A stretch of 63,909 bases of DNA, filler included, from Hausera hauseri (lineage: Eukaryota), in the NCBI GenBank assembly GCA_046269625.1. It is 12 parts of 12 records of this genome, joined end to end, with 100 filler letters (N's around TTAATTAATTAA, not from the genome) between each part and the next. Parts side by side here need not be neighbours in the genome. Positions count along the whole stretch, not along the records: positions 36,772 to 40,754 come from JBJURY010841080.1; 11 more parts are not named here. One strand, given 5' to 3'. Under the pieces are notes generated by a model, which was not told where the DNA came from, searched no databases, and saw only the letters and a list, made by a program, of their open reading frames with translations. Positions 24,900-63,470 of the stretch are shown here, one piece after another; position 1 is the stretch's first letter; each line of letters begins with the position of its first letter. Both the position numbers and the translations under genes were made by a program.

Positions 24900-25512
24900 A
24901 TGTTAGCTAATATCAACTATCGCGAACATGTTACCCAGTGTGACATTAACACACTACCTTTTAATCAATGTAAGCCGTGACAGTATGTCCTCAAGTGTCC
25001 ACCGGATTTTACATGCATCATATTTCAATCGGGAGTGTCGTATTATGGGTTGTCGCAAACCATTCACAGATGGTAAACTACGGCCATTCGGAATTGTCAT
25101 TGACCAAATCCAATTAATAACGGTAACGACTCAGTTAGACTACCACCAAACAATCAATCTGTACAAATTAGCAATGGCCATAAAATGTACGTATGAACCC
25201 GAACTGTTTCCTGCACTGAGAATGACATTGTTTTGCCCACTTTGTGTCAATGTGTTTAGCAGTGGAAAAATTGTTGTACTAGGTACTCGGACAGTGGACT
25301 ATGAACCGATTATTAATCAAATTAAAAGCCGCATAAATGATTTAGCAAATCAAAATAATGCACTCTACACAACAACAAACTATAAATACCATTCCTATGA
25401 TCATTCAGACATTACTGTTATGGAAGACGACGATAAAACGATTCTACTCAATGATGGTGGCTGTGAAAATAATGAAAGTTCAGATTGGTCGTTGTTGTTT
25501 GGCTACAAATAG
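24900..25512 (+). pseudogene. TATA-binding-protein-like gene (two TBP half-repeats)
   Basis: MLANINYR...IIFQSGxCRIMG (repeat 1) and INLYKLA...YEPELFPAL...VNVFSSGKIVVLG (repeat 2). One stop and one frameshift in repeat 1; the 3' end is uncertain. Confidence 0.8.
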
Positions 25513-26347: not shown

Positions 26348-26837
26348 ATGACGACAGGATTTATAGATATTGAAGCTGTCCAAGATGATAATGCCCGGTA
26401 CCTGATAAAGGAATTATGCGTTATGGACGTCGGTAACATTTTCGAACCGCTTGTGTACGTATTCAAGCCCGCCGTTATGTGGAATCAGTTGACAGAAAAG
26501 GTGAAAATTACCAATGGATATCTCATACGACGTTGTCATGGACTTTATTGGAACGAAGGCAATTCAACCCTTTGCGTATCATGTATCATGAGACACATTT
26601 GTGATCTTTTTGACATTGAAAGTACAATATTTTACATTAAAGATCAAATTGACGGACAAAAGTTTACACATCCATTCACAGTTTCCCGAGTTGCGAATGA
26701 CGACGTATTTAACAACATCGAACAACTCGCTGGCGATGGTACCTGACAATATTATATGTCCGTATCGTGATCATGGACCACATTGTGCTTACAAAAAATG
26801 TCTACGGCTTTGTATTGACTATATTTCATGCAAATAA
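26348..26837 (+). pseudogene. DEDD-like (RNase H fold) nuclease-like protein with a C-terminal Cys/His cluster
   Basis: FIDIEAV...IKEL...FKP...W...HGLYWNEG...CPYRDHGPHCA; one frameshift near 26660. Confidence 0.6.
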
Positions 26838-32679: not shown

Positions 32680-35600
32680 CAGAAACAGTACCCAGCAAGA
32701 GCAGCAGCAGGAACAGCATCAACAAGAAGAACAGGAGGCCAATATTCCCAACATTAGAGTCAATTACGACCTGAACAGATCGTACGTGGACATGAAGGTG
32801 AACATGACGGTAAAAACAGCAACACAATTGAAGGATGTACCTGCTCGTGTGCGTAACCGGCTGGAAATAGAGGTGACCCAATTCCAACAACACCACCACC
32901 ACTGCAAAGTGCAATATTATGCACTTGCAGAATTTGAAATTTTGGAAGGTGACAGGAAAGAATGGTACCTGTCACATCCAGCCGTACCGTATTCCGACGA
33001 TTTTATTGCCGACGTAGGCGAAAAGCTCGATGAGAAAATCGGCAACTACACGGAAAAGGGTAGTGGATGGCGAATTATACGAATTGTCACTTTCGTCTTT
33101 GTTGTAACGAAGTCGAGTGACATATTATATTTATCCGGGCGATCATTCATACCGACACCTGCAGCTGTGAAGCAGTCTCTGGCGGTAGTGAATGTAAAAA
33201 ATACTAACGACGGATACTGTTTTCTTTACAGTATTCTGGCGATATTGAAATACGACAAAGTGGACAGACATAGTGCATCTCGTCCAAAACAGTATCAGAA
33301 ATATTTTTCCGAATTGGATTTCGATGAGAGCTGGATGCCGATGAAACTGAAATCCATACCGACATTTGAACGGCGTAATCCGACACTGACAATCAACGTG
33401 TTCCGGTACAACACAGTCGTAGAAATACCAGCGGATGAAGAAATTTACAAAAACCCTCATGTAGATATAATCTATCAAAGTCGGAACCCAAATGGTCACT
33501 CAGTAGTAAATTTTGTGCTACTGGAGCAAGCAGATAAATTTCACTGTGGCAGTAACCAATTTGGACAGATTACTTAACATGGTTCACCATAAGTTTGTCC
33601 AAGAGCGTATACAATGTAAATGGTGTCCTGTATGTCTGCATGAATTCAGGTCGGAAATATCACGGGAGAAACATGTGACTCTGCAGACGAAATTCATCGG
33701 GAACCACAATGTATGTCATGACCGTCAAAAAGGAACTCAGGTTCACAGATAGATCAAAAACAGACAGTCCATCATATGTAGTATATGCCGATATTGAGGC
33801 AATTCTACCACCGCACAACGTGTATGATTAAAAACACGTTCCAATCGCCGTTGGTATGTTGACTGTCACAATAAAAGCGGTCGGTCAGCCGCAGTATTAC
33901 GCCTTTCAAGGCTGGACATGTGTGCGTGATTTTCTGCAGCGTTTGGAAACGATAGAAGAAATGGAAATCGCACCGTGGTATCGCAATAACAGCATAAAAC
34001 CCCTGATTTGGACAGATGAAGATGAACGCCTGACGTTTGCAGCCACCGATGAATGTTACCTGTGCCACCACAAAATATTACCGGAACGGCTCGTACTGGA
34101 TCACGACCATTTCACCGGTCGATACTTGGGGGAAGCATGCAACTCATGAAATTTGGCAAGACTTGTGCGGCCATTCCTGCCGGTGATATTTCATAAATTC
34201 AGGGGTTATGACTGTCACCATATTCTGAAATGGGCCATAAACGGATTTCCGCACTGAGAGCTACCCATAATCCCAACAATGATGGAGAAGTACCTGTCCT
34301 TATCGGCACGCATAAACCGGTTTCAGGTATGGTTTCTTGACTCATTACAGTTCCTCAATGAGTCCTAGCAAAGCTCGTAAATGCCTTGTCTGATGTGCCG
34401 CTAACACTGACGCAGTTCCCCACAAATATTGCACGCAGCAAAGGTATATTCCTGTATGACTTTGCCGTGTCATATGAGCGACTTCGGACAACAGAGAAAT
34501 TACCGCCGCGATGGACAGGTATCACAGAAGATGAATATCAGAGAGCACAGGAATCTTGGACAGAACTCGATTGTAGAAACATGTTGGACTACGTGCTTCA
34601 GTATCTAAATCTCGATGTGTACCTATTAGCCGATGTGTTTCGGACATTTCGGGCTAAAGCGTTGGAGGAAGATAGGTTAAAACCGCTCAACTTTTACTCA
34701 ATACCGGAAATGAGTTGGGCATTGGCACTAATGTCACTGGATTGGGACATTGAGCTGCTACAAGACTCAGAAATGTACCGACTTTTTGACGTTGGCATTC
34801 GTAGCGGCATGATATTTGTCAACAAGCATCACGTAACCAGTGATGACGATGATACATCGTCAATATTGTACATCGATATTAATAACATGTTCTGCTGGGC
34901 GCTTTTGCAACCCTTGTCGTACGGTTCATTTGAATGGATAATGGACGAACAAGAACTGGATACATTGCTGGACAGTCTGCCAGCAGCAAACATGACTAGA
35001 AGCAGCTCAGTCGGCTACCTAATGGAAGTTGATCTCGTGGTACCGGATGAGCTGCATGACTTTCTGGATGAACGGCCGGTCGCACCAATTAGCCAATGTC
35101 CACACGGCAGCTCAAAAGTAAAGAAACTGCTCATGACACATAAAGCCAAATTGAATTACGTGGTTCATTGGCGTCTGCTGCAGTTTTACATGCAGCTTTG
35201 TGTACGCGTCACACAGCTGCATCGTGCAATCCGCTTTAATCATGCGCCGATATTTAAGGCGTACATTAATGGAAATTCCGGGAAATGAGCTGCAGCTTGT
35301 ACAAAATTCAAAAAGGACTATTACAAGCTCAAAAACAAATCACTATATGGGAAAGCAGTGAAAAATGTGAAGAAGCTATTCAATGTTCTCCTGTGCAACA
35401 ACGAAAAACGACTAGTTACGTACACCAGCAAGGCTCAGTTTAGACGGTCAATGCAAATTGCCGATGGATTGGTCGTCGTGCTTCTAAACCGGGAAGAGGT
35501 CGTACTAGACCGGCCAAGCTACATCGGACAAGTGGTGTTGGACCTGAGCAAGTTGCGAATATACGAGCTCCAATATCGCGACTTGGAACGTTACCGGCAA

Positions 35601-36125
35601 ATGTTCGGCGGCAGCGGCGGCTGTGAGATCAGTATTGTTGCCGGTGACACAGACAGCTTCTTTCTTGAGCTGAAAAACATCAATCGAGACCAGTTGCTCC
35701 AATAAATAATGTCAGATGGACTACTGGACACGTCCAACTACCCATTGGACCATCCACTGTACAGCAGCACGATAACAAACAAAATCGGCTGCTTCGAGGA
35801 CGAAAGTGAAGGCCGGGTTCAATACAGCGAATGGATATTTTTGCGCCCAAAGTGTTACAGTCTTCTGACAGACTGTAGGCCGAAAATGCGGGCAAAAGAC
35901 ATCAAGCTGAAACAGACGGAAAGAAATCACAGTGATTATCGCCGTGTCTATGATGGACAAGAAGACGGAGAAGAAAGAAGGGCTGTTGTATCTCAAACGC
36001 CCGTACGATCGATTGAGCATTAGCTGTATACCATCACAAATAAAAATGTTGTTTTTTCATGCAACGATGACAAGCGAAAGTGAGTGGGGCGAAATAAGAG
36101 TTGGGCGTACGGACATTGGCGTTGA
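32680..36125 (+). pseudogene. Polinton group-2 protein-primed DNA polymerase B with an endonuclease VII/HNH-like insertion
   Basis: GSGW, YADIEA, CYLC...DHDHFTGRYLGEACN, GYDCH, FLDSLQF, DVYLLADVF, YIDINN, KxxNxSLYGK, GDTDS, LRPKCYS, DDKR and AYGHW motifs; many frameshifts. Confidence 0.95.
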
Positions 36126-36671: not shown

Positions 36672-37024
36672 NNNNNNNNNNNNNNNNNNNNNNNNNNNNN
36701 NNNNNNNNNNNNNNNTTAATTAATTAANNNNNNNNNNNNNNNNNNNNNNNNNNNNNNNNNNNNNNNNNNNNAGACAGGAAGACCTATAAATAAAGGTAAT
36801 GTTTTCATAGAAATTTTAAAAATGTTTTTCTGTTTACATGTTTATTGAATGTTGTGTTTATTGATGTCTTTGTTTGCATGTTTATTTCATTTTTAATGTA
36901 AAGAATGTATCATTTGAGATAGTTACACAATGTACGTTGTCGCTTGTGAAATTTCCTTTAAGATACACTCTACACATCACATCAAAAGGACCCTTTTTTA
37001 GCCTCTTAAAGTATCATGGACGTT

Positions 37025-37760
37025 AGTAGTAGTATAGTAAGAGGTAAACTAGTATCATTTTGAAGGCTGCGCAGAGGTGGGGCCAGGTGGACGTCAGGCG
37101 CAGGCACAGGGGCAGAGTTATGTGACGTCATAGGGAGCAGGCGGCACCCAGTGCCACATGCATGTGCTCGGAAATTAGAGTCAAAGGGAGAAGTTGTAGC
37201 GTGTATCTGGAAATTAAAGATGAGGGAAGGAGTCAGGCAGAGCAGAGAGGTGCCGCATGCATGTACCCAGAGTTGTGTTTAGAGTCAAAGGGGTGGAGTC
37301 AGGATGGTGTCTGAAGGGGGAGCAAGGGGAGGAGCTAGGCTGGCACAGCCTGGTACAAGGGGGCAGAGTTAGTCGTCACAGGCTGGTGCAAGTGTTGCGG
37401 GGTGTCACATGCGTGTACCCAGAAATTGAAGATGAGGGGAGGAGTCTGGCAGTGCATAGGGGCGGAGTCAGGTGACATCAGGTGTAGGCGTCAGGGGCGG
37501 ATTCAGTCAGTACAGGCGGTGTGGGGTCCTGCATGCATGTACCTGGAAATTAAAGACAAGGGGAAGAGTCAGGTGGAGCAGAGATGGCGTCTGAAAGGGG
37601 AGTAAGAGGACAATGTAGAGGCAGAGGCTAGTCAAGATGGTGGCTGAAGGCGGTGGTGGGATGACTTTTATCTAAGTTTTTAAGGCACAAGATGGCACCT
37701 GAAGGGTCCGTGTGGGCAAAGTCAGGCAGAGACCAGTCAAGATTGTGGCTGAAGGGTACT
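37025..37760 (+). repeat. Putative Polinton terminal inverted repeat / subterminal degenerate repeats
   Basis: AGTAGTAGTATAGT, then recurring GAAATTAAAGATGAGGG, GCATGCATGTACC, GGGGCxGAGT and GATGGxxxCTGAAGG units. The partner TIR is not in the window. Confidence 0.6.
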
Positions 37761-38371
37761 CGAGTAGATAAGGGGAGCACATTTTGTATATACAGATAAG
37801 ATATGATAGTAATTGCCTTGTAGATAAGCGCATCGTTGTAGGGTGTTGGTAACTGTTCAATTGATATACTGTGCGCTGACTGATCAAATGATGAGACAAA
37901 GTTCTGTGAATAACCGTTTGGTGGCGGGCTTTGCGCCGACTCGTCATACACGGGTGAAAAGGTCTGTATAGGAGCCCTTTGGGTGGCGATGGACTTGTCA
38001 TAAAATGGTAAAAAGTTCTGTAATGGTTCAGTGTTAATAAACGACATAAGGTTCGACGGAGGCTCGGTTTGTGTGGTAGCTGTGGCAGTTAACGGGTATC
38101 GTCCCAGCACGTCTTTTGGAACCGTTGCTATATAGTCGATGGCGGAAAAAATCTCTCTTTGCAAGGCGACGAGTTGTTCAAATTCTTCGTATGTGAGCGA
38201 GATTCCATTTTTAGTCGAGAACTTTTTGTAGCTTTCACCAAAGTATCTTCTAATATGCACCAACACTCTGTTTCGATACGAAGAAACTGTAACTAGCTTG
38301 GCCAGGCCTATCTGTCTTGCCAACGCAGCATCGCCGGTCATGTAGACGTTGTTATCAAACCACATAAACAT
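37628..38371 (-). CDS. PC4/Sub1 (p15) domain protein with a low-complexity tail
   Basis: LVTVSSYRNRVLVHIRRYF...TKNGISLTYEEFEQL matches the PC4 pattern VxVxxFxGxxxIDIRxY...KGISLxxxQWxxL. TATA near 38410. Confidence 0.8.
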   Translation of the reverse strand: MFMWFDNNVYMTGDAALARQIGLAKLVTVSSYRNRVLVHIRRYFGESYKKFSTKNGISLTYEEFEQLVALQREIFSAIDYIATVPKDVLGRYPLTATATTQTEPPSNLMSFINTEPLQNFLPFYDKSIATQRAPIQTFSPVYDESAQSPPPNGYSQNFVSSFDQSAHSISIEQLPTPYNDALIYKAITIISYLYIQNVLPLSTRVPFSHNLDWSLPDFAHTDPSGAILCLKNLDKSHPTTAFSHHLD

Positions 38372-38429
38372 TTTGAAAACAGAAAGCCCCTCTGGGTGTG
38401 CGACTCACTTATATACCATTATAACCGGT

Positions 38430-38880
38430 TTACACCGGATGTGTGACATCATAGATATTTATACAAGTAGTTTCTCTGCAGCCAAGGTAAGACGAAGCGC
38501 CAAACGAGCCTATCGTTGACGTGTTGTCTCGTTGTCGAAAAGGACATGAGGACGCGTCGCATGGAACATCCTCTGGCTTTGATGAGGATGAAATAAATGA
38601 CGTAGAGTCCTCAAGCATTACTAAAACATCTTGTAAGGGTCGCTCGTTGTAGATGAATTCTCTGTTAGAGTTACGTTTAATGAAAGTGTCAATGTCAGCA
38701 TGCAGTGGAGGAAGTCTAAAGGAATCAAAATAGTGAAATGTGCCAATGCCATCATAGTACAAAGATACCCAATGCGTATCGGGTTGGTCGCTGGGATCCG
38801 TATTTATGACAAAGGCTGCCAGCTCTGTCGGGTCGATTCGTTTGGGTAACTTGTCACGGTACACGACTTTGACAGGATGT
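38430..38880 (-). pseudogene. Adenain-like (peptidase C5) maturation cysteine protease
   Basis: INTDPSDQPDTHWV, YFDSF and NERPLQ motifs. After a frameshift it reads SNA*GLYVIYF, with the catalytic Cys codon now TGA. Confidence 0.88.
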
Positions 38881-40182
38881 CAGCGTTTGAAAATGTCAGA
38901 TTTTAAAATTGTATCTGTCGAGTGTCCATCTTTTTTAAGCCACAAAGTCCAGTAACATTTGTCTGCTTTTGGAAATTTCAATGATAGAGGTCCGTTTTTC
39001 GCGAGTTCAAACTGGTCCCCATCCAGACGGCTGGGACTGAGATCGAACGCATAGAGGGCATAACCGTCTTTGAAACTTTTGTAGTCGACATCGCAGCCAG
39101 CGTCCTTACCGATCAGACCCATGGCTAGATTAGTTCCAAAAAGGGATCGAGCGTAATGGTCGCGCTTGAAATCTACCTTTAACGGCTCCCCCGTGGCCGT
39201 CCTCCCATCGATGGTGACGTTCAAATATGTCAAGCCGAAATGTTGAAAGTTGAATGGATTATTTCTGTAGGTGCCATTAAAAGCCAAGGAATTTACTATC
39301 GCAAGGAATTTACTATCGCGATCATGGTGCGCTTCGGCGTTTGACTGAGGAAAAGATTGTCTTGAATGTGCAACAACATTCCTCTGGGTATGGACAATGT
39401 CTTTATCATGACTCGTTTGATGGGGTATTTTGCGTTCGCTGTAGTCAAGGTCTTTTCGTGGACCAGAGAAATGTCCGGATTTAATTTGGCTTTCCTGACC
39501 ACCAGGAAGGCGCATGTTATAATTGATTTATAACAGAGCGCGAGATCGTCGGCTATAAGGTTGGAGGAGTCTTTAGAAGGGGTGAGTTTGATCTTTACGT
39601 CCACTCCATTCAGCATGGGCAGTCTTAGGTTAAAATGTCGCAGTGTAAGTTTCCCATCATATCCACTTCTTGACTACCGGCAGCCAACTCACGACGAGTT
39701 TTCAGTCCGACGTTAGAATCGGCTTTAGCTTCATCGAAAAATTTTGGCGTGTCGTTGTAGTATAGGGCTGCCGTCAGGTGACCCCTTTTGGCTTCCTGAA
39801 AGTAATTTAAAACGGCTTCGACGTAAGACCTGTATGGGTAAGTGTTTTTTCTAGGCGTGATTCACGTGTCGTTCAAGGCGATGTCCACTTGAGAAAATAA
39901 TCTGGTAATTGTTGACCGGGGCCACGTCTGCACTGTCCGGTAAATTATCACCGTTGGCCAAAACGACTTTGGCCCGCACATGCAGAAAGGTATTAAACAA
40001 ATCTAGATACTCTTCGCCACTTCCGGATATTTCAAATTCTATGGGCGCCCCGGGCGCGAGAGAAGCAAGAGGGTAAATGTCTACAAACTGACCTTCCTCT
40101 AGCGCTGTTTGTGTCAGAGGAACACTAAACAAATCCAAACTGGAATGGGGGCATTCGTACGAGCTGGGGTTATCAAAGCCAT
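38880..40182 (-). pseudogene. Polinton major capsid protein (double jelly-roll)
   Basis: ECxxSxLDLFSVPxTQ, PIEFEISGSGEEYLDL, LNGVDVKIKL, AKYPIKRV, NPFNFQHF and GYALYAFDLSP motifs. A 17-bp tandem duplication at 39285-39318 causes one frameshift. Confidence 0.92.
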
Positions 40183-40186
40183 GTCT

Positions 40187-40661
40187 TTAATCAAAGATGT
40201 CTGAATACTTCCTTCCTCGTCGTTTCTTGGACTTAGTGTGAGAATTGCTCGAGGGCACTGTCCGTTTTATTCTTTTCTTAACAGGTTCGCCTGGTGGCGT
40301 GGATTTTCTTTTACGATGCATGCTGCCACCTGATAGGTTGCCTGCCACGTGATTCACGGCACCTTGCACCAGTCTCTGTCCGGCCGCTTTGGCTCGGTCT
40401 CGGAAGGATTCGCCGACGTTTCGACCAGTTAACGCGTCCTGGGCCACTTACAAACCCATCCAAACGCCTTCCCTGATCAAAGCTTTGCCTCCGGTTTTTA
40501 ACTACCGGAGGATCAATCGACGCAATCCAATAAAGAAACTTCTGATGCCTCTTCCACGTTGACTTCTGCCACCAACAAAAACGGGAATTCCGTCTCCTGC
40601 TTGACTGTGGTAAGTCTTTGTAAACCTGGGCACTTCGATGTAAAGGAGTGTGCCTAACCAT
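40187..40661 (-). pseudogene. Polinton QxGxG virion protein with amphipathic helices and a basic tail
   Basis: YHSQAGDGIPVFVGGRSQRGRGIRSFFIGL...KTGGKAL...VAQDALTGRN...KKRRGRKYSDIFD; stops and a frameshift. Confidence 0.8.
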
Positions 40662-61100: not shown

Positions 61101-61189
61101 AGAATGGGCTCAGCAAAGAACCTACTAACAAACATTCATGTAATGAGATAAACACGGTCGAAGTTGTTCATATATTCTATAAAAAATAT

Positions 61190-62250
61190 CCAGGCAATGC
61201 GCGCCCCATTGCAATATGATAACTTCAAATGGGTCGAGAATCTTGAAGACATCCCTATCATGGACCTAGGTCCCATTAGAGATACGGGATACATACTGGA
61301 GGTGGATATGGAATATCCGGCTTCCATCTACGTAAGACATCAACATCTGCCTTTTTTCCCTGAGATCAGACCTCCGCCCAATGGAAAGCAGAGAAAGCTG
61401 CTGTGTCATCTGTGTAATAGGGAGAGGTATGTAGTTCACTACGTAAATCTCCAGCAGGCAGTTAGACATGGACTTCATATTACTAAAATCCATAGAGCCC
61501 TGCTGTTCAGCCAGTGCATGTGGTTGCAGCCCTACATAGATCTTAATAAGAAGCTGCGGGCTAATGCCAAGAAAGACTTTGAGAAGGACCAATTCAAGCT
61601 TTACAACACCTCTGTCTTTGGCAAGACCATGAAGAACATCCGCAACAAGGTCAACATCGAGTTGGTCTGAATGGAAGCGGGAAAAGAAGCTCCTTGGCAA
61701 GCCCAACGTCCAGAGCAGCACCATATATGCTGAGAACGTGGTCAGCATATATATGCTGAAAACAGCATTGGTATTCAACAAGCCCATATATGTGGGTATG
61801 GCAATCCTCAACATGTCAAAGATCATAATATACAGATTCAATTGCGACATCATGGTCCCCAAGTTCAAGTGCATGCAGCTGATGTATATGGATACTGATA
61901 GTTTCATCTATTAGATCCATACAGAGAATATGTATGAAGACTTTGCCTAGTTGGCTCAACATATGGATACCTCGGAATACCCGAAGGATCATCCCAATTA
62001 TTAAATTGCCAATAAGAAAGTCATTGGGGAAATTCAAAGACGAGGTGAATGGAGCAGTCATGTCAAAATTTGTAGCTCTCTGATCTAAAATGTATGCTCT
62101 GGACGTATGTGGCCAAATCAAAAAGAGAGCCAAGGGCGTTCAAAGGGTTACCTTAGTCAAGAAAAGCAGTTTTCAGGACTATGTGACAATTCTGCAGGAG
62201 CAGACGCACATTATATCGGAAATTAGCAGGATCCGATCTAGGCATCGTCA
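61190..62250 (+). pseudogene. Polinton group-2 pPolB C-terminal fragment 1
   Basis: GYILEVD, LPFFPE, YVVHY, FKLYNTSVFGKTM, KPIYVG, YMDTDS, FKDE and KRAKGV motifs. Confidence 0.92.
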
Positions 62251-62254
62251 TTGA

Positions 62255-63470
62255 TCATGTACCTTGATGCACATAATCTCTATGGGTAGGCTATAAGTTA
62301 CAGCTTATCCTATAGAAATTTCCAATTGGTAGATGATTCAAGTCAAATTGATATCATGGCTATTCTACCAGATGCAGAAAGAGAATACATTTTGGAAGTT
62401 GACGTAGTTTAGCCGATATCACTGCATGACGGACATGACCAGCTACCGTTCCTGCCGGAATCAAAACCACCACCAAATGAAAAATTTAAAAAATTATTGC
62501 TGCACTTGGATAATCGAAAACGATATGTCAGCCATTATGGTGCTTTATAGCAGGCTGTGCGATATGGCGTGCACATTAAAAAAATCCACAGGGCTTTGCA
62601 ATTCAGTCAGTCAAAGTGGCTTCAGCCGTACATTCAATTTAATACTGATTTGCGAATTGCTGCTAGTAATGTTTTGAAAAGGGCGAATTTAAATTGTATA
62701 ACAATTTGGTAAGACAATGGAAAATATCCGAAATCGCCAATGTATTAAATTGGTTAATGAATGGAAGAGAGCAAAGAAATTAATTGCAAATCCCAATTTC
62801 CTCCATAGTGATATTTACACCGAAAACCTAGTGAACGTCAGTATGACAAAAACAGCACTTAAGTTCTATAAGACAATCTACGTCGGCATGAGCATTTTTG
62901 ACCTATCAAAAACTCTCATGTATGATTATCATTACAATGTAATGAAATCACGATACCAGAATCAGATACAACTAATGTACATGGATACGGATTCCTTCAT
63001 CTACCACATTCAGACAGATGACGTGTTCATGGATTTCATGGATTTGGCATTTTACTAGGATAATTTTGATTACCCGAAAGATCACATCAATTATTCATCA
63101 GCAAAATAAAAAGTATTGGGGAAATTCAAGGATGAGGTTGGCAGTAAAATAATACAAAATTTGTTGGATTAAGACCGAAGATGTATGCTTTGGATGTAGA
63201 TGGACACGTTAAAAACGAGCAAAAGGTGTACAGAGGGCAACACTTGCCAATCATATAACATTTGAGGATTACGTGGATTGCCTTAGAAATGAGACAGTGT
63301 CGCCTTCATCGATGAAGTCCATCCAGTCCCACCGTCATTCCGTCACCACAGTTGACCAGTATAAGAAATCCCTGAGTCCCATTGATGACAAGAGACTGAT
63401 ATTACATGACGACATATGTACGCGAGCCCATGGACATTATGATTCTCATTATGAACATATTTGTGGCTAA
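62255..63470 (+). pseudogene. Polinton group-2 pPolB C-terminal fragment 2
   Basis: YLDAHNLYG, ILEVD, LPFLPE, KTMENIR, DLSKTLMYDYHY, YMDTDS, DDKR and AHGHY motifs. Confidence 0.92.

Follow-up and report, generated by a model that had tools for sequence, protein, structure and literature searches.

A PC4-domain gene behind the protease gene of a decayed Polinton in Hausera hauseri: a candidate single-stranded DNA-binding protein for element replication

We identified a PC4-domain gene directly behind the adenain-type protease gene of what is, judged by its gene content, a decayed Polinton in the genome of Hausera hauseri (assembly GCA_046269625.1). The protein is predicted from its conserved contact residues to bind single-stranded DNA (ssDNA). 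We consider it, with a probability of roughly 0.55, to be the ssDNA-binding protein (SSB) of the element, likely to serve protein-primed strand-displacement replication. An earlier sequence-only reading of the same DNA had offered an SSB role as one option; its identification of a PC4-type ssDNA binder stands, and we infer the replication role from genomic context.

The window, i.e. the whole stretch of 63,909 nt that was analysed, is made up of 12 short contigs separated by spacers of N; it is rich in mobile elements, and the spacers convey no linkage. The PC4 gene is located on contig 8 (36772-40754; 3,983 nt), which includes one element end. The order on its minus strand is small gene, capsid, adenain, PC4 open reading frame (ORF), degenerate repeats and the AGTAGTAGT end motif, with the following features.

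37025..37033, plus strand: AGTAGTAGT, the Maverick/Polinton (AGT)n end motif, likely the element terminus
37106..37757, no strand assigned: subterminal region of degenerate direct repeats of 20-57 nt, probably the terminal inverted repeat
37628..38371, minus strand: PC4-domain ORF of 247 aa, with an N-terminal PC4 domain and a tail rich in Ser, Thr, Pro and Gln
38123..38347, minus strand: core of the PC4 fold, residues 9-83, modelled at low confidence as four strands plus a helix
38299-38165, minus strand: Pfam PC4 match within the ORF (residues 25-69)
38408..38415, minus strand: TATA box TATATAAG, 44 nt 5' of the PC4 ATG, a putative promoter element
38491..38915, minus strand: adenain-type protease gene, broken, with an in-frame stop near its start and a likely frameshift near 38611
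38964..40177, minus strand: major capsid protein gene, broken, with about 3 frameshifts and 1 stop
40271..40640, minus strand: small Polinton gene, broken (3 breaks), 36% identical to the gene that precedes the capsid gene in the Polinton locus L004; a weaker call

The layout proposed by the sequence-only reading was borne out: the PC4 ORF directly follows adenain on the same minus strand, the neighbouring genes (capsid, adenain and the small gene) are broken, and a likely Polinton terminus lies close by, with AGTAGTAGT at 37025, about 600 bp from the ORF. Among vertebrate Mavericks, (AGT)n is the most frequent end motif (PMC8097293). The broken capsid gene shares 44% identity with the intact capsid protein of L004 (397 aligned residues), and an exact 17-bp tandem duplication (39285-39319) is present at one of its breaks. 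The small gene was also considered as a minor capsid gene and rejected, since zero minor-capsid matches were obtained on contig 8. A look-up of sequencing runs listed a single run, and no RNA run, with this sequence. In run X1, a possible source of the window, 8,310 contig records fell on contig 8, and single positions of the PC4 domain were covered by 42-69 contigs, which fits a multi-copy family. The flank beyond the terminus (36772-37037) had a high summed depth in the same run, and for this reason the copy seems to be inserted into another repeat.

The ORF itself is longer than had been proposed. The limits 38150..38371, corresponding to 74 codons, proved to be wrong: the frame starts at 38371, continues for 247 codons and ends with a stop at 37630-37628 on the minus strand, so that the PC4 domain makes up its first third. 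The PC4 signature was confirmed by the Pfam PC4 model (PF02229), which matched with an E value of 1.3e-10 and a score of 41 bits (domain alone, 43.9), above the curated cut-off of 25 bits; the tail had no Pfam match. The ORF also has the TATA box of its own that had been claimed for it, at 38415-38408. This is the sole TATAWAAG on the minus strand of contig 8, where TATAWAW occurs three times.

The suggestion that the PC4 gene stands out as intact among broken neighbours did not hold for the domain. Within the neighbouring genes we counted 9 breaks over 1,926 nt (or, alternatively, 6 over 1,556 nt), and part of these break calls are uncertain. At this rate, a PC4 domain of 222-249 nt would be open by chance with a P of 0.31-0.43. 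The corresponding P for the full 741-nt ORF is 0.03-0.06, in a test that is blind to frame changes within the low-complexity tail. The open frame was therefore rejected as a mark of domestication or selection, because openness of the domain is within chance. At one site the copy on contig 8 has S, in place of the P found in 11 of 12 relatives, and it is devoid of the C-terminal basic cluster that is present in 9 of 11 relatives. Among the listed differences from the other contigs of run X1 (40 of 354), two of the eight within the ORF fall on third codon positions, a spread that looks as in neutral decay. The indels of other copies sit in the tail and none in the PC4 domain, among those listed (12 of 17; run X1). 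By these sequence signs, the copy is probably decayed and likely dead, and its tail may be non-native.

The residues through which human PC4 holds ssDNA are largely kept in the window protein, whose PC4 domain is 30% identical to that of human PC4 over 64 columns. With the numbering anchored on W89, the human stackers F77 and W89 align to Y32 and F44, and the basic contacts R70, R86 and R100 to K25, R41 and K54. In human PC4, loss of F77 and W89 abolishes ssDNA binding, and R70, R86 and R100 are backbone contacts (PMC4350104). The relatives described below have an aromatic residue at the F77 position in 12 of 12 cases, F or Y at W89 in 10 of 12 and R86 in 11 of 12. The fourth basic contact, K101, corresponds to N55 and is basic in just one of the 12 relatives. 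Thus, both aromatic stackers and three of the four basic contacts are retained.

The monomer model has strands at residues 9-12, 16-21, 25-32 and 35-42 and a helix at 61-83, with a mean pLDDT of only 59.5. Its top PDB rows in Foldseek were MoSub1 and PC4 at E values of 0.03-0.3; no PDB match with E < 0.001 was found for this model or for that of the L005 protein (see below), and a search of the viral structure library gave no match at E 0.001. The sequence-only reading had also proposed a structure prediction of the dimer. The homodimer model scored 0.62 compared with 0.01 for the best control, the runs shared at least 90% of contacts, and partner pLDDT was at least 68. Of the solved pairs, 21 of 30 microbial and 17 of 29 eukaryotic ones attained the mark used, and none of the single chains did (0/23 and 0/30, respectively). 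Because the PC4 dimer is already a solved complex, this pass may simply reproduce known structures, and the score is to be taken as likeness and not as binding. On this model, the window protein is predicted to be a homodimer.

In these respects, the window protein is similar to human PC4 and fungal Sub1 (PF02229; PDB 1pcf, 4usg and 5zg9), with which it shares the Pfam match, the predicted homodimer and, as far as the low-confidence monomer model goes, the four strands plus helix. It also has the layout of fungal Sub1, an N-terminal domain followed by a tail, with YRN where Sub1 has FRN (PMC9600219). However, it differs from both proteins in its location on a mobile element, its intron-free gene and an identity of about 25-30%. 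The motif of its family is H.RR[YF]F...PT[KR].G instead of D.REY[WY]...PG[RK]KG, it has neither K101 nor a long Ser/Lys-rich N-terminal region, and it falls outside the cellular-type rows in a tree whose backbone is unresolved.

A search of 1.84 billion representatives returned 80 matches. Twelve single-domain relatives, 33-41% identical to the window protein, have a short N-terminus (about 10-25 residues ahead of the PC4 domain, with no Ser/Lys-rich region), the PC4 domain and, mostly, a low-complexity tail. Eight of them were looked up and came from metagenome-type sources on short contigs. Among the representative matches P0002-P0081, many have 3-4 tandem PC4 domains with the cellular-type motif. 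In a tree of 85 rows and 68 columns (3 near-duplicate clade rows omitted, other groups sampled), the window protein fell into a clade of 14 rows (100/91) and lay apart from the set of 23 cellular-type rows (97/85). This tree has an unresolved backbone and includes zero animal PC4 rows. The profile scores were a tie (44.1 bits for the viral type and 45.2 bits for the cellular type). A search for whole-length homologues with the N-terminal region gave 0 of 57 candidates. No DNA context for the relatives of the window clade was found in viral contigs, and the one of 39 metagenome stretches that passed as such a context was dropped as a bacterial helicase. The Atlas matches for the PC4 ORF were all below 0.8 and are no more than leads, with one cluster bearing the label Preplasmiviricota.

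The position of the gene is repeated in a complete element. When viral contigs were scanned for capsid motifs, three loci emerged: L002 and L003 were dropped as tailed phages, and L004 was kept as a Polinton. Capsid searches gave 0 in viral contigs and 0 in phages, and later scans returned only the contig of L004 among viral contigs and none in genomes. The whole of this contig (IMGVR_UViG_3300040792_000067, here L005) is a complete Polinton of 12,321 bp with intact core genes, including polymerase, ATPase, integrase, capsid and adenain; its terminal inverted repeats are about 265 bp long, and there is no AGT motif at its ends. A gene for a 170-aa PC4-fold protein lies on the strand opposite to adenain, about 100 nt beyond it and convergent with it. 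Pfam PC4 matched this gene below threshold (E 0.0034), and its family matched the window clade in a profile comparison with 97.1% probability. The context of the PC4 gene rests on these two elements, contig 8 and L005; together they place a PC4-fold gene after adenain in two distant elements and in two architectures.

The L005 protein was modelled with a pLDDT of 94.8 as a two-repeat, single-chain PC4 fold. Its best match was Pur-alpha (Z 12.4, rmsd 3.0, 121 aligned residues), with PC4 at Z 6.1. It thus resembles the type I single-chain PC4-like domains of Pur-alpha and Whirly (PDB 3k44). In contrast to Pur-alpha, to which it is 7% identical, its sequence is of the PC4 type, with a C-H-C-C motif at the C-terminus, and the window protein is the one-repeat form. 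The two-repeat family comprises 111 clusters among 1,185 candidates, with two named scallop proteins among them; the C-H-C-C motif, present in 69 of the 111, suggests an added partner-binding part.

The sequence-only reading had also suggested that the PC4 gene and a TBP-like gene of the window might form a small transcription module, and had noted correctly that the two are on different contigs (contig 8 and contig 5, respectively).

24928..25512, plus strand: TBP-like ORF of contig 5 with a single TBP repeat, arranged head-to-head to a Polinton ATPase gene

This ORF adjoins a Polinton ATPase-integrase block, matches one of the two TBP repeats only, and has viral TBP clusters as its Atlas look-alikes (0.92-0.93). 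A broken first repeat upstream of 24928 was considered and rejected, as 677 of 2,000 shuffles reached its score and no Pfam match was found. The composition of the TBP contig (GC 0.40, CpG observed/expected 1.31) differs from that of the PC4 contig (0.46 and 0.89, respectively), and at least two lineages of Polinton polymerase, about 30-41% identical, are present in the window. Protein-primed polymerases at 32792-35702 and 61152-63440 are divergent, and contig 12 has two polymerase pieces in tandem. The ORF at 26348-26746, with the start MTTGFIDIEA, had no Pfam match and may resemble the domain of a DEDD exonuclease or a Maelstrom-like one. L005 gave no six-frame match to the window TBP ORF, and none of the small ORFs left in it had a TBP family match. 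These sequences therefore do not support an obligatory TBP-PC4 module, since L005 has the PC4-fold gene and no TBP match and the window TBP ORF, with one repeat, lies on another contig; this comparison comprises one complete element (n=1) with a PC4 gene of the other subfamily, and within the family of the window element the two genes may co-occur.

A less probable alternative, at about one chance in four, is that the protein is a virus-encoded transcription cofactor, which would bind the melted promoter bubble and aid host Pol II at the TATA promoters of the element, with or without a viral TBP. This possibility keeps its weight because fungal Sub1, which has the same domain and layout, acts in transcription through an ssDNA-binding domain with coactivator function (PMC9600219). 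The TATA box of the PC4 ORF points the same way, as does the occurrence of TBP-like genes both in the window and in MELD viruses (PMC8502044 and its preprint, in figure legends). However, the complete L005 combines PC4 with no TBP match, the TBP ORF of the window is a single repeat on a compositionally different contig, the relatives have short N-termini with no Ser/Lys-rich region, and the L005 protein, with its two repeats and zinc motif, does not resemble Sub1.

We regard it as unlikely that binding of ssDNA or folded DNA serves another step, such as the protection or opening of terminal hairpins, recombination, repair, integration or the hiding of ssDNA from host sensors. PC4-fold proteins such as Pur-alpha and the phage T5 protein do unwind or stabilise melted DNA (PMC7549692), the PC4 gene adjoins the terminal repeats in both elements, and the C-H-C-C motif of the two-repeat proteins suggests partner binding; nevertheless, a terminus-side position is typical of any accessory gene (PMC8097293). 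Least probable of all, and by our estimate very improbable, is a passively captured fragment of host SUB1/PC4 that has no role for the element. The decay signs of the contig 8 copy and the equally high scores against cellular-type and viral-type profiles would agree with such a capture, but the relatives, which are divergent and free of introns, form a supported clade and keep the binding residues, and this argues against it. The TATA box, the same position in the distant, complete L005 and the many covering contigs in run X1 are also at odds with a captured fragment.

Adenovirus, phi29 and tectiviruses each encode an SSB of their own for strand-displacement replication. Viruses with protein-primed polymerases, which displace a strand without a helicase, often encode non-OB SSBs (PMC4889955). 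The replication SSB that we favour would work in a similar way. The PC4 dimer (in the other subfamily, the single-chain, two-repeat form) would stack via the two aromatics on the strand that the Polinton polymerase displaces, shield this strand, and block its re-annealing or its folding at GC-rich termini; the basic C-terminal cluster of the relatives would take the protein into the nucleus. Such a role would belong to active elements, the copy on contig 8 being probably dead. The kept binding residues, the related clade and the PC4-fold gene at the same place in L005 speak for this SSB reading. On the other hand, the PC4 gene is at the capsid-protease end, away from the polymerase, in both elements; K101 is not conserved across the relatives; and the PC4 ssDNA-binding domain also acts in transcription (PMC9600219). 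The PC4 dimer binds two short ssDNA stretches (PMC7549692); cooperative coating of a strand would be putative.

A precedent is the PC4 homologue of phage T5 (PDB 4bg7), a virus-encoded PC4 fold that has been tied to DNA replication (PMC7549692). Unlike the Polintons, T5 is a bacterial virus with recombination-dependent replication, and its homologue matches only weakly in structure, at rank 20 with the window model and at Z 5.3 with the L005 protein. The adenovirus DBP and the phi29 and Bam35 SSBs share with the window protein the proposed job only, that of an ssDNA binder of a protein-primed replicon; their folds are unrelated (bioRxiv 10.1101/2021.03.25.437074, PMC4889955). Their cooperativity and stimulation of replication have been demonstrated, whereas a replication role of the window protein is suggested by its context.

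In the literature searched, we found no description of a Polinton SSB for strand-displacement replication, and a PC4-fold candidate makes this gap testable with one small protein. Nor did we find a link between PC4 and Polintons or Mavericks; one paper has PC4 as a table label, and supplements, GenBank records, Repbase or subscription papers could hold such a link. PC4 was not found in the accessible parts of 2026 preprints, a nematode preprint, a coral supplement and the preprint text of Starrett et al. In the published article (Starrett et al. 2021, PMC8502044), Suppl. Fig. S2 has an ssDNA-binding label, 'SSDBP', in the Hydra and Stylophora adintoviruses, which are animal Polinton-type viruses. 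There it adjoins SLATT, and the article text carries no definition of the label, with 0 occurrences of either SSDBP or PC4. The 'SSDBP' of adintoviruses may belong to the same family as the window PC4. The candidate loses some of its appeal through the precedent in T5, the 'SSDBP' label, which may be an earlier record of it, the small number of contexts (two) and the decayed state of the copy.

A wider reading, tentative and somewhat short of even odds, is that animal Polintons have recruited the PC4 fold as their missing SSB, both as a one-repeat homodimer and as a single-chain protein that has two repeats and a zinc motif and resembles Pur-alpha, and that the 'expanded PC4 families' associated with stress in bivalves are largely Polinton genes that are on in early embryos. 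The bivalve part is our own inference from scallop proteins in the L005 family: P0113 and P0114, annotated as 'uncharacterized', fall into this two-repeat PC4 and zinc-motif family. The reported bivalve 'PC4 expansions' comprise 2-18 copies, and the accessible text of that study makes no mention of transposons (PMC9223095). In the bay scallop, two of the PC4 genes are single-exon and two-domain and have their expression peak at the blastula stage (PMC9223095).
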